Assembly: GCA_039024555.1 (NCBI GenBank)
Contig: JBCCQQ010000084.1
Location: forward strand, 1-21,132
DNA from: Cyanobacteria bacterium P01_D01_bin.156
GTDB taxonomy: Bacteria; Cyanobacteriota; Cyanobacteriia; Phormidesmidales; Phormidesmidaceae
DNA: 21,132 nt
Direction: 5' to 3'
Part shown: positions 2,930-14,402 of the stretch, in pieces
Position numbering within the stretch: the first letter of the stretch is position 1
How the letters are laid out: every line of letters begins with the position of its first letter
Notes under the pieces: generated by a model
What the model was told of the DNA's origin: nothing
Seen by the model: only the letters and a program-made list of their open reading frames with translations
The model's database searches: none
Translations under genes and position numbers: made by a program

Positions 2930-3655
2930 ATGACTATTCCTTCACTTGCTTATAATCCCACATCCCAAAATGTTAGGGTCATAGCCCTCGATGTTGCTAA
3001 TGAAGAAAGCCCTAAAATTTTTTCCAGCAGTAATTTGTTGCAAGCCCAGGAGATGGATACGCTGATTTATGCAGCCTATCGACAAATTTTTAACGAGCAG
3101 CAAACGATTGCATACCATCGTCAGCAGTTTTTAGAGTCCCAACTAAGAAATAATCAAATCACAGTCCGCGACTTTATTCGAGGACTGGTAACTGCCGACA
3201 GTTTTCGCCGTTGCGTCTACGACTGCAATAACAACTACCGGTTCGTCCAACTGTGTGTACAGCGAATTTTGGGGCGAGATGTCTACAGTCAAGATGAAAC
3301 CCGTGCTTGGTCAATTGTGTTGGCGACTAAGGGATTATCCGGTTTTGTCGATGAACTCTTGGAAAGTACCGAATATTTAGAAGCATTTGGGGATGATATT
3401 GTGCCCTACCAGCGACGACGGATATTGCCCCAGCGAGCTGAGGGAGAGTTGCCCTTTGCTCGTATGGCTCGTTATGGCCGTGAGCATTTAGAACAACTAT
3501 CAGCATTAGGTTACAACTACAGCGCATGCCCATTAGTCCCCAACTGGTGGGAGTTTCCTAAGGCTCCCACATCCCCATTAGCCTATGTGGCCGTTAGCCT
3601 GACGGCCTTTGCTGTCCTGTACTTGATTGTGTTCGTGCCTATCGTTTCTCCATAG
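2930..3655 (+). CDS. cpcL: Phycobilisome rod-membrane linker CpcL (CpcG family with C-terminal transmembrane helix)
   Basis: PBS linker domain (LIYAAYRQIFNEQQ, LESQLRNNQITVRDFIRGL, NNNYRFVQLCVQRILGRDVY, EYLEAFGDDIVPYQRRRILPQR) plus the hydrophobic tail LAYVAVSLTAFAVLYLIVFVPIV, which distinguishes CpcL from CpcG. AGGAG RBS. Confidence 0.9.
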   Translation: MTIPSLAYNPTSQNVRVIALDVANEESPKIFSSSNLLQAQEMDTLIYAAYRQIFNEQQTIAYHRQQFLESQLRNNQITVRDFIRGLVTADSFRRCVYDCNNNYRFVQLCVQRILGRDVYSQDETRAWSIVLATKGLSGFVDELLESTEYLEAFGDDIVPYQRRRILPQRAEGELPFARMARYGREHLEQLSALGYNYSACPLVPNWWEFPKAPTSPLAYVAVSLTAFAVLYLIVFVPIVSP

Positions 3656-3685
3656 TCAACTAAACATACGACACAAAACTTAAGA

Positions 3686-3723
3686 CGAGAAATATTCTCA
3701 ATAAATTGAGAATGCACTAGAGT
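3686..3723 (+). promoter_or_regulatory. isiA promoter with overlapping Fur-like boxes
   Basis: CGAGAAA-T-ATTCTCA (3686-3700), a perfect inverted repeat ATTCTCAAT-aa-ATTGAGAAT (3694-3713), and candidate -35 TTCTCA / 17 bp / -10 TAGAGT (3718-3723). Confidence 0.75.
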
Positions 3724-3788
3724 TGACTTGATCTTTGTTGACTTTCAGTATCAATAAGGATCGCTTTTTGACTACAGGACTCATAACT

Positions 3789-4853
3789 ATGACAACGTCT
3801 GTTGCGACCAGTGCAGCGGGCTCTCCGCCCTGGTGGGCCGGTAATGCTCGACTGGTGGACTTATCGGGGCGATTGCTTGGTGCCCACGTAGCTCACGCAG
3901 GGTTAATTGTGCTCTGGGCAGGGCTAATTACGCTTTTTGAGGTCAGTCGTTTAGATGCAGCGCGTCCTCTCTATGAGCAAGGATTTATTGTGCTGCCAAA
4001 CCTAGCCCGCTTAGGCTACGGACTAGGAGACGGTGCCACGATCGTTGATAGTCACCCCTACTTCGTGGTGGGGGCTGTGCACCTGATCAGCTCTGCTTTT
4101 CTTGGGTTTGGGGGTATTTTCCATGCCCTTAAGGGGCCTGAGACCTTAGGGGGTAGCTATGCCTACGATTGGAGCGATGGCAACAAGATGACCCAGATTT
4201 TGGGGTCCCACTTGGTACTGCTAGGGGGTGGTGCATTGTTATTGGTGGCAAAGGCCACAGCTTTAGGCGGTCTCTATGACCCGTTGACCCAAACAGTACA
4301 CACGGTGGCTCCCAATACCAACCCTGCTGAGATTTTTGGCTACCTATTTGCTGGTAAGTTTTGGCTGGCTGGGGTGGACAATTTAGAAGATGTGGTTGGT
4401 GGCCACCTATACATTGGTATTCTTCTAATTGCCGGTGGCTTTTGGCATATTGCAACCCAACCCACTGCCTGGGCTAAAAAGCTCTTTGTCTTCTCAGGAG
4501 AGGCCTATTTGTCTTACAGCCTAGGTGCCCTGAGCCTAATGGCATTTGTGGCGACCTTATTCGTATCCGTCAATTCCCTGGTGTTTCCCACGGAATTCTT
4601 TGGTCCCACACTAACCATTGAATTTGATCGGGTGCCCTACTTTGTTAGCACTACGCCTGTGGATGGCTACTCATCGCGGGAGTGGCTCGCCAATGCGCAT
4701 TTCTGGCTTGGATTCTTTTTCTTGCAAGGGCACCTTTGGCACGCCCTAAGAGCGGCAGGCTTTGACTTTGGCCAGGGTCAGGTAACTAAGTCTGTGGGTG
4801 GTCGCGTTGCATCACCTACTGAGCAAATGGCCATTGGTCAACTCAAAGGTTAG
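3789..4853 (+). CDS. isiA: Iron-stress-induced chlorophyll-binding protein IsiA (CP43' family)
   Basis: [69 protein letters not shown]; lacks the large lumenal E loop of CP43. The ATG at 3789 follows an AGGA RBS. Confidence 0.95.
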
Positions 4854-4892
4854 GCCCAAGACGCCTTCCATTGGTAACACAGACTATTTTTA

Positions 4893-4985
4893 CCGTTGCT
4901 GATCCTCATGATGGATGACTGTATCTGCCATGTTCAGGTCTTTAGTCAGAATGACGGGGCATTTTATCCCTTAAATCAGCAACGG
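4893..4985. repeat. ~90-bp terminal-inverted-repeat / hairpin element, copy 1
   Basis: CCGTTGCTGAT (4893-4903) ... ATCAGCAACGG (4975-4985) is a perfect 11-bp inverted repeat; internal blocks are shared with copy 2 at 10064-10152. Confidence 0.8.
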
Positions 4986-5022
4986 CATATTTTTTGCAAT
5001 ACGTGAATTAAAAAGGTAAATC

Positions 5023-6474
5023 ATGACTGCAAGTGCAATTAGTAGTCGACCTGTTTCCCAGCGAGTTGGCTGGTGGGCCGGTAACGCTAGATTTATAGAC
5101 TTTTCTGGCAAACTTTTGGGAGCCCATGTGGCCCATGCTGGGTTGATTACCCTGTGGGCTGGGGCCATGACTTTGTTTGAATTGTCTCGCTATAGCCCCG
5201 ATATTCCCATGTACGATCAGGGCTTAATTTTGCTACCTCACCTAGCCACCTATGGTTTAGGCATTGGTGAAGGCGGCGTAATTGTAGATGCCTATCCATT
5301 TCTAGCCATTGGCATGTTCCACTTAGTGGCGTCTGCCGTACTAGGGGCTGGGGGCATTTACCACTCCTTTTTAGGTCCCGATCAGCTCAAGCAAGATAAG
5401 ACATTTGCGGGATTTTTTGGCTACGACTGGCAAGATGACCGCAAGATGACCACTATTATTGGTATTCATCTGTTCCTACTGGGTTTGGGGGCCTGGTTGC
5501 TAGTGGCGCAGGCCATGTTTGGTACCGGGCTATACGACCCCGACCTGGGCGCAATGCGAGTGGTTGAGAATCCAACCCTAGGGGCTGGGAAAATTTTTGG
5601 CTACCTGATAGGTTCCCACGGTGAAGCTGGTATGGCTGCAGTGGATAACTTAGAAGACATTGTTGGTGGCCACATTTGGGTTGGCCTTATGTGTGTGCTA
5701 GGTGGCATATGGCATATGGCAACCCATCCCTTTGGCTGGGCTAAACAGGTGCTGGTATACAACGGCGAAGCTTATCTGTCCTACAGCCTGGGCGCGTTAG
5801 CCTACATGGGTATTTTGGCCGGTTACTTTGTCACGGTTAACGACACAGCCTATCCAGAAGTGTTTTACGGTCCCCTCGGCTTTTTAGGTAATGCGGATGT
5901 GATTCCGGTTCGTACCTGGCTAGCAGCTTTCCACTTTGCATTTGGTGGCCTATTGCTGGCAGGTCATTTGTGGCATGCGGTTCGAGCCAGGGCTGAGGCC
6001 CAGGGCTATAGCTTTGGACGGGGCGACTTTGTCTTGAGCTACAACCCAGAGGTGGGGAATATGAACACCCCCTTGAACAGCTCTGATCTAAGCCTGCTGT
6101 GGATTAACAATCTGCCTATTTACCGCAGTGGATTATCTCCGTTTTCCCGTGGTCTAGAGATCGGCATGGCCCACGGTTACTTCTTGTTTGGTCCCTTTGC
6201 GCTTTTGGGTCCCCTGCGCAATACCGACTCAGCAAATTTAGCCGGTTTGCTATCGGCCTGTGGCTTAGTGATCATTCTGACCCTGGGGCTTTCCCTGTAC
6301 GGTCGAGCCACATTTTCATCTAACAAGCCTGCAGGTGGTGAATTGCCGGAAAACCTTAAGTCCGCTGAGGGCTGGAGCCAGTTTGCCACCAGCTTTTTTG
6401 TCGGTGGCACTGGGGGCGCACTGTTTGCCTATCTCCTAATCAGCAATGGTGATTTGCTGCTAACCACTGTTTAG
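5023..6474 (+). CDS. isiA: IsiA-PsaL fusion protein
   Basis: Residues ~1-325 are IsiA-like ([33 protein letters not shown]). From ~nt 6040 the sequence is PsaL-like ([77 protein letters not shown]) in one reading frame. Confidence 0.95.
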
Positions 6475-6535
6475 GCCAAAACACGGTCCATAGTGTTCCC
6501 TAGAGCTGGTCTTGTTTAAAGGCTAAACGATGCCT

Positions 6536-6569
6536 CAATGCCTTCATGCCCTACCGCATGAAGGCATTG
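6536..6569. terminator. Perfect 14-bp stem-loop downstream of isiA-psaL
   Basis: CAATGCCTTCATGC-cctacc-GCATGAAGGCATTG. No U-tract, so it may be a 3' stabilising hairpin rather than an intrinsic terminator. Confidence 0.55.
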
Positions 6570-6627
6570 CTAGGTATGGCCTGGGGTTTAATCGCAATTT
6601 CTAATGAATCTTCCAAAGTTCCTTTAA

Positions 6628-6699
6628 AAAGAATTATTCTCAATAAGTGAATTCCATGTATACTTTTTGGGAGACAAGTCTAATTGACTTTAATTATCA
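6628..6699 (+). promoter_or_regulatory. isiB promoter with two Fur-like boxes
   Basis: AAAGAAT-T-ATTCTCA (6628-6642), sharing ATTCTCAATAA with the isiA promoter; -10 TATACT (6659-6664); second box TGACTTT-A-ATTATCA (6685-6699). Confidence 0.7.
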
Positions 6700-6799
6700 A
6701 TTGGACGGGAATTCGCCAGGGGAGGCTATAACTCCGTCGCGTTGTAGTCTCCACTTTCTTTCACCAATTATCTTCTTTTACTGAACTAAGGTAATCGTT

Positions 6800-7309
6800 A
6801 TGGCCAAAGTAGGTTTGTTTTATGGTTCCACTACAGGAAAAACTGCTGATGCTGCAGAGCAGATTCAAGCAGCTCTGGGTGGAGATTCTGTTGTTGATCT
6901 TGTCGAAATCGAGGACGCTAGTGCCTTAGCTGAGTATGAATATCTGATTGTTGCTTGTCCCACTTGGAACATCGGTGAACTTCAGGATGACTGGGCCGCT
7001 GTGTTTGATGATTTGGACGACATGGACTTTAGTGGCAAGACCGTAGCCTACATGGGTACAGGCGACCAGGTGGGCTATTCCGACAACTTTATGGATGCCA
7101 TGGGTCAGCTAGAAGAAAAGATCGCTGGCCTAGGTGGTAAAACTGTTGGTTACTGGTCTGCAGATGGCTATGACCATGAGGCATCTTTAGCTATTCGCGA
7201 TGGCAATAAGTTTTGCGGGTTAGCCTTGGATGATGATAACGAGCCTGAAAAGACCGAAGATCGAATTAAGGCTTGGACCACTCAAATTAAGCAAGAAATG
7301 GCTCTTTAG
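6800..7309 (+). CDS. isiB: Long-chain flavodoxin IsiB
   Basis: GLFYGSTTGKT FMN phosphate loop, CPTWNIGELQDDW, GTGDQVGYSDNFMDAMG, FCGLALDDDN. Confidence 0.97.
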   Translation: MAKVGLFYGSTTGKTADAAEQIQAALGGDSVVDLVEIEDASALAEYEYLIVACPTWNIGELQDDWAAVFDDLDDMDFSGKTVAYMGTGDQVGYSDNFMDAMGQLEEKIAGLGGKTVGYWSADGYDHEASLAIRDGNKFCGLALDDDNEPEKTEDRIKAWTTQIKQEMAL

Positions 7310-7342
7310 GCTGTCTGAACTCCTCTCTCAAGACAGCTTTTT
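7310..7342 (+). terminator. Intrinsic terminator-like hairpin after isiB
   Basis: GCTGTCT(GA)...(TC)A-AGACAGC followed by TTTTT, immediately after the stop codon. Confidence 0.55.
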
Positions 7343-7521
7343 CTCTTCACAGACCAGTGGTCTGGGTTTCAGCTATATAGTCCCAACAGCCCAGTCTCTA
7401 GCCATAACGCCACTGGTTTTTTCTAATGTGTGTTCAGGATTTACAGTTACTTGCTAAAGCACGTATTTAAGTCCTGGGCACATCTAAAGTTTTGGCTTTG
7501 TGTTTTCTCTCTTTTTGTTTC

Positions 7522-7848
7522 ATGAATGTTATCGCCCTGGTTCTATATGGAATAGGCCATGTGGGAGTAACAATTGGGATTTGGAGTATTGTGCTGTTAT
7601 GTGCGTGGCAGCTGTTTCATACATTGAGGCAGGGCATTAGCTATGTGAGACGGTTACACCAGATTCCCTGTAGTCGTTGTGCTTATTTTACTGGAGACTA
7701 TCGTTTGAAGTGTACGGTCCATCCATTCTCTGCTCTCACTGAAGAGGCCATAGGTTGTATGGACTATAAATCTAGAGCTCCAATATGCGAAGGAACATGT
7801 TCTCAGAGCCTATCTCCATGGCCTGTTAAGGATTTGTTGAAGCAGTAG
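7522..7848 (+). CDS. Small Cys-rich membrane protein, conserved cyanobacterial hypothetical
   Basis: N-terminal hydrophobic segment, then LHQIPCSRCAYFTGDYRLKCTVHP...EEAIGCMDY (Cx2C-x10-C-x13-C). The ATG at 7522 is preferred over the TTG at 7492. Confidence 0.8.
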   Translation: MNVIALVLYGIGHVGVTIGIWSIVLLCAWQLFHTLRQGISYVRRLHQIPCSRCAYFTGDYRLKCTVHPFSALTEEAIGCMDYKSRAPICEGTCSQSLSPWPVKDLLKQ

Positions 7849-7914
7849 GTCTAGAAGGCGATAGGTTTTCTCCTTAGGGAAATTGAGTTAGGTGAATTAG
7901 TAGGAGCTTGGATT

Positions 7915-8949
7915 ATGCAATCTCAGCCAACTGTGGGCAATGTGACTAGAGATTTCTCTTGGTTACAGGGAAATGCTCGTCTTATTAATCGAACAGAAAT
8001 GCTGTTAGGGGCTCACTTAGCCCATGCTGGTTTGATTATGTTTTGGGCGGGGTCTTTCACCCTATTGGAGCTATCGCGCTACAGCCCAGACATTCCCATT
8101 GCTCAGCAAGGTTTGCTGTTATTGCCCCGTCTGGTCAACCTAGGCTGGTGGGATATGGATGCTTGGTTTGCGATCGCTATCTTGCACTTGGTCTCATCTG
8201 CTGTACTTGCCGCAGGTGGTTTTTTCCACACATTTAACCAGCAGCGCTCCACTGACTATGCGGTGGGAAATGACGTAATTATGGCCAAGGAAGAAGGTTT
8301 ATGGAGTAATCCTGCTACCTTGAGCTTTATTCTGGGCCAGCATCTAATTGTCCTAGGGTTTGCCGCCTCGTTCTTTGTGCTTAAAGCAACTCAATTTGGT
8401 GGTATCTACGATCCAACGGTGGGAACTGTTCATATCGTTGATCAGATCACCACTAATCCAGCTGTGATCTTTGGTTATCTCTTTGGATTCACTCCCCATG
8501 GTTGGGACCCAATGGGAATGGCAGCTGTTGATAATATGGCCGATTTGATTGGTGGCCATGTGTGGATATCTGTTATCTGTATTTTGGGTGGTATTTGGCA
8601 CACGGTTCGTGCTCCATTTGGCTGGTTTAAGGACAGGTTTATCTATGATGGCCATGTTATTTTGTCCTACAGCCTGGCCGGTGTTGGCCTAATGGCATTA
8701 ATTTCTATTTTCTTCGTTTTCAACGAAATGATTTATCCTGTCGAAATTTTTGGTGCCAATCGCCTAGAAACGATTGCCCTGCAGACCCTATTGGGAGTTA
8801 CCTTTTTGGGCGGGCATGTTTGGCATAACTTGCTTGGCCAGAAGAACAGTGGTCGTCTCAGTGACCTATCCTATTACGAAGCAGCCATGGCAGGATTCGC
8901 AACTATTTTGGTTGCAGGCGTTGCTATCGGACTTAACAGTGTTGCCTAG
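7915..8949 (+). CDS. isiA: Divergent IsiA/Pcb-family chlorophyll-binding protein with extra C-terminal hydrophobic helix
   Basis: GNARL, LLGAHLAHAGLIMFWAG, HLVSSAVLAAGG, VDNMADLIGGHVW, ILSYSLAG, GGHVWH; shortened loops; AGGAG RBS. Confidence 0.9.
   Translation: MQSQPTVGNVTRDFSWLQGNARLINRTEMLLGAHLAHAGLIMFWAGSFTLLELSRYSPDIPIAQQGLLLLPRLVNLGWWDMDAWFAIAILHLVSSAVLAAGGFFHTFNQQRSTDYAVGNDVIMAKEEGLWSNPATLSFILGQHLIVLGFAASFFVLKATQFGGIYDPTVGTVHIVDQITTNPAVIFGYLFGFTPHGWDPMGMAAVDNMADLIGGHVWISVICILGGIWHTVRAPFGWFKDRFIYDGHVILSYSLAGVGLMALISIFFVFNEMIYPVEIFGANRLETIALQTLLGVTFLGGHVWHNLLGQKNSGRLSDLSYYEAAMAGFATILVAGVAIGLNSVA
8170..8177. repeat. HIP1 octamer GCGATCGC (first of 7 copies spotted)
   Basis: Copies read at 8170, 11359, 15252, 16424, 17446, 20171 and 21013. 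HIP1 is a known cyanobacterial genome signature. Confidence 0.85.
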
Positions 8950-8984
8950 CGGTCTCTAACTATGGATTCCTCTAGATCCATGCC

Positions 8985-9019
8985 GACTCATCTCTGCTTT
9001 GTGGAGATGAGTTTTTTTT
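8985..9019 (+). terminator. Intrinsic terminator after the third isiA
   Basis: GACTCATCTCTGC-ttt-GTGGAGATGAGTT followed by a T run. Confidence 0.8.
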
Positions 9020-9070
9020 GCCCATCAGCCATGGGCCTTGATATATCTTAAAAAAATTGATTTTAGAACA

Positions 9071-9403
9071 ATGCGCTGGTTTAAGGTTACTTTTCAAAAT
9101 TCTCGTCTAGATCAAAAAACGACGGTAAATGTTGCAGAAGATGACTCTGTTTTAGATGCGGCTAAAGAAAAGGGTTTGAATTTCCCCATGCCCTGCCGTA
9201 CCGGCAACTGTGATGCCTGTGTGGGTCGGCTTTTAGTTGGCAACCTGGATCAGACAGAACAGTCACTTTTGGACGACGCTCAAATTGCCGATGGACATGC
9301 ATTGCTCTGTCGTTCCTATGCACTTTCTGATTGCACCATTGCTGTCGATTGGGACGGGGGGCTTTTAGAACAGAACGAGCACTTTTTTTTCCTTGATAAG
9401 TAA
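9071..9403 (+). CDS. Divergent plant-type 2Fe-2S ferredoxin
   Basis: CRTGNCDAC...LLC cluster ligands, DQTEQSLLDDAQI, SDCTI; extended C-terminus. The ATG at 9071 is preferred. Confidence 0.9.
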   Translation: MRWFKVTFQNSRLDQKTTVNVAEDDSVLDAAKEKGLNFPMPCRTGNCDACVGRLLVGNLDQTEQSLLDDAQIADGHALLCRSYALSDCTIAVDWDGGLLEQNEHFFFLDK

Positions 9404-9417
9404 GGCTTTCTGCGACT

Positions 9418-10023
9418 ATGACATCCTCACTTCCCTACAGTCACACCCTACATGTAAGCCCCTATGGAAAGTCAATTCCATATGCCGAAAACAGTCATGC
9501 CAATCACGGATTTAAGAATCTCAAACACTATCCTGAACTAATCGATGATATTCCAGAATTATCAACGGATAGCAGTTTGAGGTCTTTGGTTGTTTCTCTA
9601 AACACCTGTAACAGTAGCTTTTTTAGTATTGGTTGTTTTAGTGGCATAAGAGAAACATTACATGGGGCGCGACACCGGGGGTATGTAGAATTTGCATGGA
9701 ATTGTAGAAACTGTGTACGGGATGCTATCCATTATTTTTCTTTATATTTTCACTTTGACCAATTCTTACGCACCCATGGGTTCAACCATAGGGTAAAGTT
9801 AGACTGGCTAATTGAAGAAGCTCAGTTTTGTGATATCGATCTTTGTGGTTTTTGCTGTGCAATTTTTATCGATACAGCCCCCTGTGAATTGACCGCTGAT
9901 GCCATAAATGCATGGCAAATATCGCTTCAAACAATCGATTCATTTCTCGCAGCTATTCCCCAATCGTCTTCTAATGCGATTTATGGAAACACAGAGAACA
10001 CTTTAAATGGAGTAACTGCTTGA
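9418..10023 (+). CDS. Hypothetical protein (201 aa, Cys/His/Phe-rich)
   Basis: Long ATG-started ORF 14 bp after the ferredoxin; no family recognised. Confidence 0.75.
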   Translation: MTSSLPYSHTLHVSPYGKSIPYAENSHANHGFKNLKHYPELIDDIPELSTDSSLRSLVVSLNTCNSSFFSIGCFSGIRETLHGARHRGYVEFAWNCRNCVRDAIHYFSLYFHFDQFLRTHGFNHRVKLDWLIEEAQFCDIDLCGFCCAIFIDTAPCELTADAINAWQISLQTIDSFLAAIPQSSSNAIYGNTENTLNGVTA

Positions 10024-10063
10024 GATAAGCTATCGCGCGATATTCAGCAGGTTTAAGTTTTAG

Positions 10064-10152
10064 CCGTTGCTGATTTATGGGATGGATCGATCTGACGACG
10101 CTAGACTGTGCCAGACTCTCTCAGAAAAAATTATCCCGAGGATCAGCAACGC
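10064..10152. repeat. ~90-bp terminal-inverted-repeat / hairpin element, copy 2
   Basis: CGTTGCTGAT (10065-10074) ... ATCAGCAACG (10142-10151), extended by GGGAT/ATCCC and inner TCTGA/TCAGA pairs. Confidence 0.8.
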
Positions 10153-10185
10153 CAAGTTTTAACTATTTTTGAGAGGAGAGCGTCT

Positions 10186-11139
10186 GTGGAAACCCATGAG
10201 TTTGATGTTGTTATTATTGGTGGCGGTCCAGCAGGATGTGCCTGTGCTCTCTACACGGCCCGTGCCGATCTCAAAACAATTATTTTAGACAAAAACCCAG
10301 CCGTGGGTGCCTTAGCAATCACTCACAAAATTGCCAACTACCCTGGTGTAGGTGGTGATATTAGTGGGACTGCTTTGTTGGATATGATGCGTGATCAAGC
10401 AGTGGATTATGGCGCGGTGTATCAGCGTTCCCAGGTCTTTGGCATTGATGTGGAAGGCCCCCTCAAAAAGGCCTATACCCCTGAAGGAATTTTTGCTGGA
10501 CGGGCGATGGTACTCGCTACCGGAGCCATGGGTCGAAAAGCCTCTTTTTCAGGTGAAACAGAATTTTTAGGACGAGGTGTAAGCTACTGTGCCACCTGTG
10601 ATGGTGCGTTTTACCGCAATCGAGAGGTGGCTGTTGTGGGTATTAATCAAGAAGCAATTGAAGAAGCCCAGGTACTGACTAAATTTGCCTCTACAGTTCA
10701 CTGGATCACGCCTAAAGTTCCCAAGCCAGAAGACGTACATAGTCAGGAACTGTTGCAGCGAGACAATGTTAAACCCTGGAACCGTGCTCGATTACTTACG
10801 GTCCAAGGCGACAATACCGGTGTCACTGGTATTGAAATTAAGCCTTTGGATCAAGCGGCTGTAGAACTTCCAGTGGAAGGGGTGTTTATTTATCAAAGTG
10901 GTTCTAAACCGATTACCGATTTTATTAACGGTCAAGTTGCCCTCAACTCTGATGGGGGAGTGCGGGTCGACGAGATGATGAATACGTCAGTAGATGGGGT
11001 ATGGGCCATTGGAGATATTCGTAATACTCCCTTTAAACAGGCAGTAGTTGCCGCAGGAGATGGCTGTGTTGCGGCAATGTCCATTGATCGTTTTCTCAAC
11101 AGCCGTAAGTCTATTAAGCCTGACTGGGATCATAAGTAG
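10186..11139 (+). CDS. trxB: FAD-dependent thioredoxin reductase, TrxB-like, probably the ferredoxin-dependent FFTR/DTR type
   Basis: FAD motif DVVIIGGGPAG, ANYPG, LATGA, redox GVSYCATCDG, TSVDGVWAIGD. NADPH motifs are replaced (GINQEA for GGGxxA; ITPK for HRR) and there is a C-terminal KPDW tail. GTG start at 10186 after a GAGAGGAG RBS. Confidence 0.92.
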   Translation: METHEFDVVIIGGGPAGCACALYTARADLKTIILDKNPAVGALAITHKIANYPGVGGDISGTALLDMMRDQAVDYGAVYQRSQVFGIDVEGPLKKAYTPEGIFAGRAMVLATGAMGRKASFSGETEFLGRGVSYCATCDGAFYRNREVAVVGINQEAIEEAQVLTKFASTVHWITPKVPKPEDVHSQELLQRDNVKPWNRARLLTVQGDNTGVTGIEIKPLDQAAVELPVEGVFIYQSGSKPITDFINGQVALNSDGGVRVDEMMNTSVDGVWAIGDIRNTPFKQAVVAAGDGCVAAMSIDRFLNSRKSIKPDWDHK

Positions 11140-11141
11140 CA

Positions 11142-11996
11142 TCAGGCCACTGGAAGATATTCAGGCAGTACGGTCAGACAGGCTAGGGCAGTATAGGTAA
11201 GGGCAAAGTAGGTTTCAAAGCGGGCAATGTGGCCAAAGTGACAGTTGCAGTACCAGTCTCGAAAGAGAATAACAACCACTAGTTTGATTAAAACAACGCT
11301 TAATGTGAGAGCTGTAAACAGCGATAGCCAGCCTAGTAGATAAAGTGTTGTGGTTAGCGCGATCGCAACACTATGAAACACGAAGCTACCCTTTAATGAG
11401 CTGGTTCTGGCCTTGCGTAATTTGATGGTAAAAACTGCACTGGCAAAAAAGCAGGAGTTCAACAACCACAAACCCAGAGCCTGTACGGTAATGGTGTCAG
11501 TATTGGTGCCATATACAAACAATGTGGCCATACAAATGGCTGAGAACATAAGAATTTCAGTAGCGATAGCCTTTTGCTGTCGTTGCAAAACCGCTACCAT
11601 GTCAATGCCCATGGCGATGGCAGCCGCACCGCAAACCCAAAGCAGTACCGGATGTCGATAGGCCAGATAGGCTGCAATAATTAGTGCACTGCCACCATAC
11701 ACACTAGCCCATAGGACATATCTGGGCTTCCAATGGCGTCGCCGTTTTAGTTGAACAATTAGGGGATGTTCCGCCTGTAACCCCAAAAAGGCAACAACAC
11801 AGGCCAACGTCGTTTCCCAAGTCCAGGTCTGAGCCAGGGAAGCTCCTGTAAGCAGAGCTCCCATCAAAACTAGGAGAACACCATGTTCAGGAGAAAACGT
11901 TGGCAAATAAATGGACTTGCTATTTTCTGAAATGTTTATGGGCTTGGCATTTCCTGAAATATTTGTTGGAGGAGCAACCACTGGAGAACTAATCAT
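11142..11996 (-). CDS. YwiC-like integral membrane protein
   Basis: N-terminal PEHG..V..GA..GA motif typical of the YwiC-like family and about 8 hydrophobic segments. The start is uncertain (TTG 12002 or ATG 11996). Confidence 0.8.
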   Translation of the reverse strand: MISSPVVAPPTNISGNAKPINISENSKSIYLPTFSPEHGVLLVLMGALLTGASLAQTWTWETTLACVVAFLGLQAEHPLIVQLKRRRHWKPRYVLWASVYGGSALIIAAYLAYRHPVLLWVCGAAAIAMGIDMVAVLQRQQKAIATEILMFSAICMATLFVYGTNTDTITVQALGLWLLNSCFFASAVFTIKLRKARTSSLKGSFVFHSVAIALTTTLYLLGWLSLFTALTLSVVLIKLVVVILFRDWYCNCHFGHIARFETYFALTYTALACLTVLPEYLPVA

Positions 11997-12046
11997 TGCC
12001 AAAGAGATTAAAAACCACTCGCACTTGTATGCAGACGCTTGAATAT

Positions 12047-12061
12047 CAAGAATAATTCCTA
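12047..12061. promoter_or_regulatory. Degenerate Fur-like box upstream of the ywiC-like gene
   Basis: CAAGAAT-A-ATTCCTA (core GAAT-n-ATTC kept), ~50 bp upstream of the start. Confidence 0.45.
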
Positions 12062-12301
12062 TTAAAGAATACCCTGATATGGCCTAAGAGTATTTAAGTT
12101 TCTCAAAAATTAATCTCAGTTAAAGGGTGTTATTTTCTCTCAAGACATTCATATATTTGCTTGAAAGTATCTCCCTAAGACATTTATATAGTCTTGGCTG
12201 CACTAGTCAAACCCATATCCTTCGAACGTATTTAGTTGCAAAAACAATGTGACGCGCAAACGTCCTACGCATCAGCACGTTTGCTATATCTAAGTCAAAC
12301 T

Positions 12302-12316
12302 TGAGACTAAGTCTTA
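12302..12316. promoter_or_regulatory. Fur-like 7-1-7 palindrome upstream of the TPR gene
   Basis: TGAGACT-A-AGTCTTA, ~40 bp upstream of ATG 12358. Confidence 0.45.
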
Positions 12317-12357
12317 ATAACTGCTATCCTTAACAAGCTCTTCTATAAAATCTAATA

Positions 12358-13011
12358 ATGTGGCTCCATAAGTCCTTTTCCCTTGTTCTGTTGGCATTAC
12401 TGACAACTTCGTTACCGGCTAGGGCACAGTCCTTAAATGAGCTATCTCGACAAGGAATAGATGCATATCGTGCTGGCGATTATCAGACAGCCGCATCACT
12501 CTGGCAGCAGATAATAGAGCAGGATCCAGAAAATGCAGATGCCTATAACAATTTAGGGGCAACTCTCTATCAGTTGGGTCAGTCAGAAGCCGCAGAAGAT
12601 GCCTATCGCAATTCTCTAGAAATTAATGGTGACAGCGCAGATACTTACAATAATCTAGGGGCTGTGCTGGTACAGCGAGAAAAGTACGAGGACGCTGTTG
12701 TTGCCTACAGGCAAGCTATCGAACTAAATCCAGAACTGCCCGAAGCCTACGTGAATTTGGGCAATTTACTGCCCGCCGAACAAGCTGTAAGTGCATACAC
12801 AAAAGCAATAGAGTTGAACCCTAGCTATGTACAGGCCTACAACAATTTAGGATCTGTTCTTTTTGAGTTAGAAGATTATGAGAACGCCATCCTAGCCTAT
12901 AACCGTGCCCTAGAAATCGCTCCTGACTTTCAATCCGCTCGTGACAATTTGGCTCTAGCGGAAACCGCCATTGAATCTAGAGAGAATACGAATTCTGAGC
13001 CCGCACAGTAG
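12358..13011 (+). CDS. Tetratricopeptide repeat protein with N-terminal signal peptide
   Basis: Signal-like LVLLALLTTSLPARA-Q; repeated AYNNLG...A...Y..A.E..P units (~5 TPRs). Confidence 0.92.
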   Translation: MWLHKSFSLVLLALLTTSLPARAQSLNELSRQGIDAYRAGDYQTAASLWQQIIEQDPENADAYNNLGATLYQLGQSEAAEDAYRNSLEINGDSADTYNNLGAVLVQREKYEDAVVAYRQAIELNPELPEAYVNLGNLLPAEQAVSAYTKAIELNPSYVQAYNNLGSVLFELEDYENAILAYNRALEIAPDFQSARDNLALAETAIESRENTNSEPAQ

Positions 13012-13058
13012 TGATGACGCCAAAGCCTGCTTAATGCACTGTGTAGCAGAGTTTATTC

Positions 13059-13358
13059 CTAATATAGGTCGTCTTCTGCATGGGTTTCAATCGTGCAATC
13101 CGACATAGGATAGGTAACACAGAGCAAAGCATAACCGGCCCCAAGCTGATCGTCATCTAAAAACGATTGATCTGACTGATCCACCTCCCCCTCTAAAATC
13201 TTGCCAGCACAGGATGAACAGGCACCAGCACGACAAGAGAATGGTAAATCTACACCCTGGTCTTCTGCAGCATCCAAAATATATTCATCATCCGGCACTT
13301 CGATTGTGGCATCAACGCCATGGGTCTCACTAATCAAGGTGACTTTGTAGGTTTTCAT
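13059..13358 (-). CDS. petF: Plant-type ferredoxin (2Fe-2S)
   Basis: [70 protein letters not shown]. Confidence 0.96.
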
Positions 13359-13404
13359 AAGTGCTGTTTCTAGTTAAAGAATGGTTGCTGTCTTCTAAAG
13401 CAGT

Positions 13405-13845
13405 CTAGAATGGAGCTAATGTCTCAGAATGCTGGGTCCTGATTAGAGCAATTCTTCCATAGCGGGGATCAATATCCAGTCCCATAATCTCTAATTGAGT
13501 AGGGTGATTTTGATCCCTATTTTGCAGGGTGTAACAAGCTAAATCTCCAGGGGGCAACGTCAGACACTGTTGAAAAATATGCTTTCTATGTTGCAAGGGT
13601 AAAAAGAGAGTATCACCAACGGCTAAGGCCGCATGATTTTGAAAGGTAACCTGCCCATCGTGGGTGAGAATACCGGCCGGGGTAGGATACTGATCGCACC
13701 AATGTACAGCCAGAAACCAACGAGCATCGGCAATGCGATTAAATAGATGATCTTTCTTAGGATGTTGCAGTACGCGATAGCCACCTTCAACGGAGAGAAT
13801 AGTCCCGCCTAAAAAAGCAACCGCAACATTAATGGAATAACTCAT
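13405..13845 (-). CDS. Hypothetical protein (~146 aa) upstream of petF
   Basis: Clean ORF co-oriented with petF, 46 bp upstream. ATG 13845 is preferred over TTG 13857. No family recognised. Confidence 0.75.
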   Translation of the reverse strand: MSYSINVAVAFLGGTILSVEGGYRVLQHPKKDHLFNRIADARWFLAVHWCDQYPTPAGILTHDGQVTFQNHAALAVGDTLFLPLQHRKHIFQQCLTLPPGDLACYTLQNRDQNHPTQLEIMGLDIDPRYGRIALIRTQHSETLAPF

Positions 13846-13921
13846 GATTTGGTTCAATAATTGTATAAATCCATGGGCAATAACAAATCAGTTTAACAAC
13901 AAGTTAACGTGCTCTTGAAGA

Positions 13922-14014
13922 CTAGAAGTCCGATATTTCAGAAGAAATCAGCATAGTCCAAGCAATAGCTGCCGTAACTGGTGATAAAACCAACAGAAAA
14001 TCCAGATCAATCAG
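13922..14014 (-). CDS. Candidate PsbY-like single-helix small protein or relic (30 codons, non-canonical start)
   Basis: Manual translation LIDLDFLLVLSPVTAAIAWTMLISSEISDF*, which resembles the PsbY pattern D..(hydrophobic)VL.P...A..W. No ATG or GTG precedes the helix. Confidence 0.3.
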   Translation of the reverse strand: MIDLDFLLVLSPVTAAIAWTMLISSEISDF

Positions 14015-14140
14015 GCTAGAAGAAGCCCACCTGGTCAGGTTGCCCTATTTGCGTTTAGTGTTGTCTAACCGGGACAGCGCAACATTACGGTTACGTCGTG
14101 CATTCTCATAATCAGGATAATGACCTTAGTTTGATTTAAT

Positions 14141-14155
14141 CAAGAACTATTGTCA
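14141..14155. promoter_or_regulatory. Fur-like box upstream of the sORF-hypothetical-petF unit
   Basis: On the minus strand, TGACAAT-A-GTTCTTG with TAT/ATT flanks. Confidence 0.5.
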
Positions 14156-14383
14156 ATAGTGTACGCCAAAATAGGCTATTAATTTAACCTTGTATCCAAA
14201 CTTTTACCGTGCCCCAACAAAATGTAGTCCCGACAACAAAAGGCATTATGTTGGTTTTTAGATATTGTTTTAACGCTGGTTATTAGGAGTTTACAAGGAC
14301 GGGAGAAATCGCATAGTTACAGCCGCCCTTCAACATATCCAATGCTGTCTTGAGTAACTTTAGGTAATTGCCTAAAGTTAACT

Positions 14384-14402
14384 AATAAGAATCATTCTTA
14401 TT
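14384..14402. promoter_or_regulatory. Perfect 9-1-9 Fur-like palindrome between the petF unit and araC
   Basis: AATAAGAAT-C-ATTCTTATT. Confidence 0.65.

Follow-up and report, generated by a model that had tools for sequence, protein, structure and literature searches.

A gene for a flavin-only thioredoxin reductase, FFTR (10186..11139, + strand), closes a run of photosystem I antenna and flavodoxin genes in the stretch of DNA analyzed here (the window), which comprises 21,132 nucleotides of Cyanobacteria bacterium P01_D01_bin.156 (assembly GCA_039024555.1, contig JBCCQQ010000084.1, positions 1 to 21,132 of the forward strand). The original prediction for this DNA listed nine consecutive + strand open reading frames (ORFs) and read them as one iron-sparing circuit that reaches from photosystem I to thioredoxin. 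The nine ORFs are present at the positions that it gave, and its labels cpcL, isiA, isiA-psaL, isiB, divergent isiA, ferredoxin, and thioredoxin reductase were upheld by Pfam and NCBIfam searches. Two starts were corrected: the reductase, which had been started at 10108, begins at a GTG codon at 10186 according to the alignment of homologues and a Shine-Dalgarno-like stretch, and isiA begins at an ATG codon at 3789.

The run, all of it on the + strand, opens with cpcL (2930..3655; PF00427, E = 6.5e-46), which encodes a CpcG-type phycobilisome linker identified as CpcL by its C-terminal hydrophobic membrane helix (Kyte-Doolittle value of 2.5 at residues 221 to 239). It continues with isiA (3789..4853; TIGR03041, 406 bits versus a cutoff of 335; without the CP43 lumenal loop), an isiA-psaL fusion (5023..6474; PF00421 and PF02605, E = 5e-58; ≥90% identity in 13 of 21 congeners), isiB for a long-chain flavodoxin (6800..7309; TIGR01752, 210 bits versus a cutoff of 147), a gene for a small Cys-rich protein (7492..7848), and a divergent isiA (7915..8949; PF00421, E = 3e-41). 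Behind these lie a conserved two-hairpin RNA element (8961..9020), composed of a CU-loop hairpin and an intrinsic terminator, and the three genes that we call the FFTR module: a divergent plant-type [2Fe-2S] ferredoxin that keeps the four cluster cysteines (9071..9403; TIGR02008, 88.6 versus a cutoff of 81.2), a hypothetical protein (9418..10023), and FFTR itself. The Cys-rich and hypothetical ORFs matched no family in the Pfam and NCBIfam searches. The former belongs to an unnamed cyanobacterial family of hypothetical proteins whose genes come after isiB or isiC-like genes at other loci; the latter also precedes FFTR in genome G292. Alignment with PsbC of the same genome showed that all three IsiA proteins are without the large lumenal E loop. 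Two of them, the second being the PsaL fusion, exceed the TIGR03041 cutoff, and the divergent IsiA falls below it (251 versus 335 bits). The divergent protein also has a shortened first loop and an additional C-terminal hydrophobic stretch, which may form a seventh helix.

Among proteins of solved structure, the best relative of the reductase is the Gloeobacter enzyme (5J60/6XTF; E = 2.5e-155), the next best match scoring 7e-59. The FAD-binding GxGxxG motif (G12 to G17), C135 and C138 of the CxxC motif, and the tail residue W314, which aligns with W315 of the Gloeobacter enzyme, were invariant in 28 of 28 aligned homologues. In the alignments, the NADPH-binding GxGxxA/G motif of NTRs and the basic residues that follow it are replaced. 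Identity as an NTR or NTRC was rejected (TIGR01292, 285 bits, below the cutoff of 343; no thioredoxin domain). The structural match, the CxxC motif, the Trp tail, and the lost NADPH motif bear out the flavin-only enzyme of the original prediction, and by sequence the protein carries every mark of a cyanobacterial FFTR; ferredoxin-dependent reduction of thioredoxin would be expected from homology to the Gloeobacter enzyme. A check for ftrC and ftrV in the same genome found both, together with nine thioredoxin-domain matches, so that FFTR supplements FTR here and does not replace it. No NTRC was found in this genome, and of two other TrxR-like genes, one encodes a response-regulator fusion that has no CxxC motif and the other encodes a DDOR-like protein.

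FFTR (called at an E value of ≤1e-80) was present in 12 of 21 congeners, and in 11 of these 12 it lies downstream of the divergent isiA; the named related records are marine-type Leptolyngbyaceae metagenome-assembled genomes. With four further families described below, this bears out the synteny of FFTR and isi genes expected in relatives. The genes in between are optional, as the ferredoxin is absent from 2 of the 11 linked loci and the hypothetical protein from another 2. The isiA-psaL cluster occurs in 13 of the 21 congeners, two of which (G002 and G020) are without FFTR; in G020, the contig stops within the divergent isiA. The FFTR of G003 and a second copy in G015 represent a different, unlinked FFTR (75%). 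The second G015 gene (L149:8351-9467) sits behind CBS and CP12 genes, and an unlinked FFTR at L024:7862-9902 sits behind genes of sulfate assimilation (ATP sulfurylase and PAPS reductase); both adjoin other thioredoxin clients. A second isi copy in G019 (L187, G019:C49) is degraded, with isiA broken, isiA-psaL and isiB intact, the divergent isiA nearly lost, and the terminator element kept.

Across the class, FFTR was present in 64 of 401 genomes, and neighborhoods of up to 9.5 kb on each side were examined for 53 of them; the remaining 11 are ten small-genome members of family f2 and one member of f15, in which the flavodoxin gene is far away. A scan of 30 of the 64 parts of a genome collection yielded 11 cyanobacterial FFTR loci among 80. 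In 22 of the 53 loci, isiA, isiB, or an isiC-like hydrolase gene stands beside FFTR, and these linked loci come from 5 (f1, f2, f10, f16, and f18) of the 12 families with FFTR. ftrC is kept in 21 of the 22 linked genomes. As read by eye, a long-chain flavodoxin gene lies within 10 kb of FFTR in 15 of the 57 genomes having one and within 10 kb of ftrC in 0 of 31. When linkage was placed as a label on an FFTR tree of 62 rows, it changed five times, with at least three of the changes forced by well-supported branches, and no bootstrap tree needed as few as one change; the changes may be gains or losses alike.

The most frequent partner is an alpha/beta hydrolase that we take to be isiC-like, a name supported here only by the position of hydrolase homologues directly behind isiB. 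It is encoded directly upstream of FFTR, co-oriented and ~9 to 240 bp away, at 17 of the 22 linked loci (e.g., L109:10497-11285, L118:10608-11414, and L138:8748-9512), and the 8 best-scoring members of this paralogue group are all followed by FFTR. Within f2, FFTR is flavodoxin linked in 9 of 41 genomes, and the paralogue was seen in no others. In f18, FFTR lies 9 bp from the isiC-like gene, in a unit behind a Fur-like box. Other neighbors of FFTR include fec/TonB uptake genes, genes for futA-like binding proteins, ferritin, and heme oxygenase, and class I aldolase, which adjoins FFTR in G292, G200, and G181. In G191 (L125), a 10.6-Mb genome of 99% completeness that gave no ftrC match, FFTR lies amid isiB, fecD, a TonB receptor gene, and petF. 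In genus g84 of f34, FFTR is co-oriented with ftrC and ~200 to 300 bp from it in 4 of 4 genomes (L101, L102, L103, and L117); in the sister genus g117, ftrC was not found, and the neighboring DUF309 gene remains (L114).

Fur-like boxes were scored against a 19-bp consensus. At ≤4 mismatches, the window holds 7 sites versus 0.115 expected (200 shuffles), and all 7 are intergenic, 5′ of fecD, isiA, isiB (two), ywiC/TPR, and araC. The boxes that had been claimed before isiA and isiB are there, at 3684, 6626, and 6683. The isiA box (3684..3702, four mismatches) is shared in position by 5 of 6 relatives; the two isiB boxes (6626..6701, three and four mismatches) are kept in relatives, the one at 6626 in 7 of the 7 that cover the spacer. 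On this consensus and conservation, the isiA and isiB promoters are predicted to contain Fur boxes. Further Fur-like boxes at 1503, 2373, 12045, 12300, 14139, and 14384 flank fecD, ywiC/TPR, and araC. The limits first drawn for the island were too narrow, since boxes at 1503-2373 and 12045-14384 lie outside them, and the FFTR module is therefore inside a larger iron island rather than at its edge. Beyond the window, the 400 bp upstream of the FFTR unit contain a Fur-like box at 7 of 10 linked nonpicocyanobacterial loci versus 3 of 21 unlinked ones, two of the 7 boxes possibly belonging to a divergent isiA.

Unnamed ORFs and a YwiC-like gene in this larger region (1605-2330, 11142-12002, and 13405-13857) recur near isi or FFTR loci of other families (L097, L110, L118, and L132) and probably belong to the iron regulon as uncharacterized members. 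In this genome, Fur-like boxes overlap or precede several PetF paralogues (window 13059-13358; G000 C48:39475-39834 and C103:6963-7321), so some ferredoxins may be induced at low iron. Relatives also conserve the isiB leader (6703-6765), which lies 3′ of the Fur-like boxes and has a hairpin with a T-rich tail at 6721-6752, possibly an attenuator or a short RNA.

The original prediction treated the nine genes as a single coregulated run. Because conserved Fur-box promoters precede both isiA and isiB, the run instead comprises several transcription units; the separate Fur-box promoters number at least two, and the FFTR module comes after a terminator that is itself conserved. This is the strong terminator that had been noted 3′ of the divergent isiA (8985-9013 plus a T run). 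In relatives, the next start follows the T run after only ~13 to 28 nt. The FFTR module has no conserved promoter and would, in the simplest reading, be transcribed by read-through that begins at the isiB promoter; a promoter that is internal or not conserved is possible.

The 60-nt element at 8961-9020 is 87 to 95% identical in 11 of the 21 congeners, compared with 33 to 45% identity at FFTR four-fold sites (8 congeners). Its changes mostly preserve pairing, with one compensatory pair of 21 in the consensus fold. Among 151 family genomes searched, it is restricted to the genus, with one weak outside match (E = 0.008), and it had no Rfam match. Since it is kept in the degraded G019 copy, which is without FFTR, it is part of the isi transcript, at its 3′ end. 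The first of its loops is rich in C and U and can pair with ribosome-binding sites, and we regard the element as a candidate 3′-end-derived small RNA or stability element. IsaR1 is an RNA of ~68 nt with its own iron-regulated promoter and validated targets; the element resembles it in size and two-hairpin layout but has no Fur box in front. A target scan lent the small-RNA reading no support: the main petF ranked 223rd of 5,420, and the loop matches its ribosome-binding site, but this site also occurs in 4 of 4 genomes without the element; ftrC ranked 4,269th. Rfam matches to IsrR, found at each of the three isiA genes, reflect the opposite strand of the coding sequence and provide no evidence for an antisense RNA.

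These observations point, with somewhat better than even odds in our estimation, to FFTR as an accessory low-iron back-up that would keep thioredoxin reduced as FTR declines. When Fur repression is lost, the antenna genes and flavodoxin would be switched on, and FFTR would be expressed at a lower level by read-through from the isiB promoter past the conserved terminator; FFTR is probably iron-induced. By homology to the Gloeobacter enzyme, electrons would pass from a one-electron donor to FAD, the CxxC motif, and thioredoxin. The donor would be whichever photosystem I acceptor is abundant, namely flavodoxin hydroquinone and residual PetF (C31:25726-26025), and the divergent ferredoxin would be dispensable. 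The semiquinone/hydroquinone couple of flavodoxin lies at about -430 mV. Published potentials are -424 mV for Fdx1 and -448 mV for the FAD of FFTR (PMC12796991), and flavodoxin is a donor to FNR and FTR, though a less efficient one than ferredoxin (PMC5322553). Because flavodoxin donates to FNR and FTR and has a potential close to that of Fdx1, it is plausible as a donor; we give flavodoxin hydroquinone a little less than an even chance of donating to FFTR. Structure prediction for an FFTR dimer with IsiB (score of 0.23 against a mark of 0.32) is evidence neither way. No test of flavodoxin as an FFTR donor was found in the literature searched, outside of which most subscription papers lie.

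Several observations weigh against the back-up role. All 11 relatives in which FFTR is linked retain the terminator, relatives' alignments revealed no conserved promoter in the spacers before the ferredoxin and FFTR, and no conserved antiterminator or consistent alternative fold was found in 10 sequences. No Fur-like site with ≤5 mismatches lies between 6702 and 12044, in agreement with the original prediction, which had seen no clear box before the last three genes, and none of the 8 picocyanobacterial linked loci has a Fur-like motif. FFTR is not beside isi genes at 31 of the 53 loci, 14 of the 35 ftrC-positive genomes included, and some unlinked loci, several ftrC-positive ones among them, had short flanks. 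Linkage was found in 21 of 35 ftrC-positive versus 1 of 18 ftrC-negative genomes, and with kinship removed this comparison comes down to 3 to 5 independent pairs, too few for significance (sign test, P = 1). In G002, which kept the isi genes, one deletion took out the terminator element together with the ferredoxin, and another took out the interior of FFTR; because this close relative has deleted it, the FFTR module is accessory. With only a short FFTR remnant (L150:14185-14420), G002 is a natural knockout that can be compared with G009, where the module is retained. In Trichodesmium, the fall of ftrC at low iron (log2 fold change, high versus low iron, of +1.08; adjusted P value of 9.6e-7) favors a back-up role, but Tery_1699 (trxB) is not induced (+0.49; adjusted P value of 0.21) (PMC12090762). 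Tery_1699 is FFTR-like by annotation and length, and it is unlinked, lying ~48 kb from isiB. Flavodoxin may also be a poor FFTR donor because the enzyme discriminates between ferredoxins and its FAD is at -448 mV.

The conserved terminator and missing Fur box, the unlinked loci, the uninduced Trichodesmium gene, the clean loss in G002, and the nonindependence of the congeners would all suit a passenger account, in which FFTR landed beside isi genes once per lineage, is self-transcribed and not iron regulated, and owes its synteny to inheritance of the island. We consider this unlikely, given that isiA, isiB, isiC-like, and fec/TonB uptake genes surround FFTR in varied layouts in five families, that the ftrC control was near flavodoxin in none of 31 genomes, that the f18 gene is spaced 9 bp from an isiC-like neighbor that has a Fur-like box ahead of it, and that thioredoxin reductase transcripts of marine Synechococcus rise at low iron (PMC9723758, PMC11970481). 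FFTR might alternatively be iron-induced and serve mainly an antioxidant or iron-regulatory role, supplying thioredoxin for peroxiredoxin or Fur rather than replacing FTR in light signaling. Such a role would fit the failure to find NTRC in this genome, the grouping of trxR with peroxiredoxin under oxidative stress (PMC11970481), the ability of TrxA to reduce Fur (PMC9025218), and the pairing with the isiC-like hydrolase, which photosynthetic signaling leaves unexplained. It sits less well with the in vitro reduction of Trx-m and CP12 by the Gloeobacter enzyme (PMC8154056), and as the main job we rate it as improbable; the antioxidant and back-up roles overlap, because thioredoxin serves both outputs.

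The strict form of the original prediction, one coregulated run in which the divergent ferredoxin is the dedicated FFTR donor, now appears very improbable. In 9 of 11 congeners, the ferredoxin is co-oriented with FFTR and, like FFTR, lies beyond the terminator; at 5 of 9 picocyanobacterial loci, the module is preceded by a PetF paralogue unrelated to this ferredoxin. Both observations speak for a dedicated partner. However, the protein forms a long-branch clade found in congeners only, is fast-evolving (~70% identity among congeners versus 85 to 91% for FFTR), and costs two irons. It is also less acidic than PetF (net charge of approximately -10 versus -17), its cluster loop is altered, and it is extended at the C terminus. 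The FFTR of Gloeobacter binds Fdx1 but does not bind Fdx2; the latter carries such an extension, which has been suggested to block its binding (PMC8154056). This rejection of the extended Fdx2, together with the absence of the gene from 2 of the 11 linked loci, makes the divergent ferredoxin unlikely as a dedicated donor. The accessory back-up, which the abundant acceptor would supply, is our preferred explanation.

Ferredoxin/flavodoxin, cytochrome c6/plastocyanin, and class II/class I aldolase are iron-sparing swaps, and the arrangement described here resembles them in that the iron protein is retained and its iron-free counterpart lies in an iron-stress locus. None of the papers found demonstrates that FTR and FFTR form an inducible pair. 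The use of FFTR as a low-iron replacement of FTR has been proposed, with the coexistence of the two left open (PMC8154056), and the distribution of FFTR has been described (PMC9025218). The Gloeobacter violaceus FFTR (formerly DTR; PMC8154056, PMC12796991) shares the CxxC motif, the Trp tail, and the missing NADPH motif with the enzyme studied here, which is 71 to 72% identical to the f15 homologues. In Gloeobacter, FFTR is the sole reductase and a permanent replacement, whereas a conditional swap is suggested for the present genome, which keeps FTR and has its FFTR within an iron-stress island.

Clustering of a reductase with flavodoxin is also known from Syn-eCAG_011 of marine Synechococcus (trxB, isiB1, hydrolase, and isiB2), which is enriched in low-iron ocean regions and was described as an "NTR system"; trxB is carried by almost all Prochlorococcus and by part of Synechococcus (PMC10119275). 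Because the same trio surrounds FFTR at 9 of 9 picocyanobacterial loci, we infer that the trxB of Syn-eCAG_011 is FFTR, and by analogy the induced trxB/trxR of marine Synechococcus would be FFTR as well. That cluster is arranged tail to tail, has no IsiA-PsaL/CpcL cluster, and was given no mechanism, whereas at the present locus FFTR follows the antenna genes in the same orientation, with the hydrolase gene on contig C57. The strongly iron-induced multi-isiA clusters of Leptolyngbya JSC-1, Trichodesmium, and Anabaena (PMC12090762) share several isiA copies, the PsaL fusion, and cpcG2/cpcL with this locus, which differs in gene order, in having isiB inside, in its unusually divergent last IsiA, and in the appended FFTR module; the section of that paper on those clusters mentions no reductase. 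The linkage had been thought undescribed. This stands insofar as the literature searched contained no description of FFTR in filamentous isiA clusters, and searches on isiC and JSC-1-type clusters gave nothing relevant; it falls insofar as a low-iron role of FFTR (PMC8154056) and a flavodoxin-reductase cluster (PMC10119275) are in print. The island is thus of a known type and holds a known enzyme, and the linkage recurs across lineages and is only partly in print.

More tentative is a general picture in which FTR-keeping cyanobacteria have repeatedly wired FFTR into the iron-starvation regulon, so that at low iron a wholly iron-free route from photosystem I through flavodoxin and FFTR to thioredoxin would assume the light-driven regulation of thiols. 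FFTR would then also be the low-iron "trxB" known from ocean Synechococcus, and the transcript of this genus would end in a conserved 60-nt RNA, maybe an iron-sparing small RNA. We regard this extended version as doubtful. The coexistence of FTR and FFTR is a question named by the FFTR-defining paper (PMC8154056), and gene context offers it a testable answer, a conditional iron-sparing swap. If this is true, thiol-redox control would join the processes that are re-plumbed under iron limitation, and the iron-stress marker of marine Synechococcus would be reannotated from NADPH dependent to photosystem I dependent.

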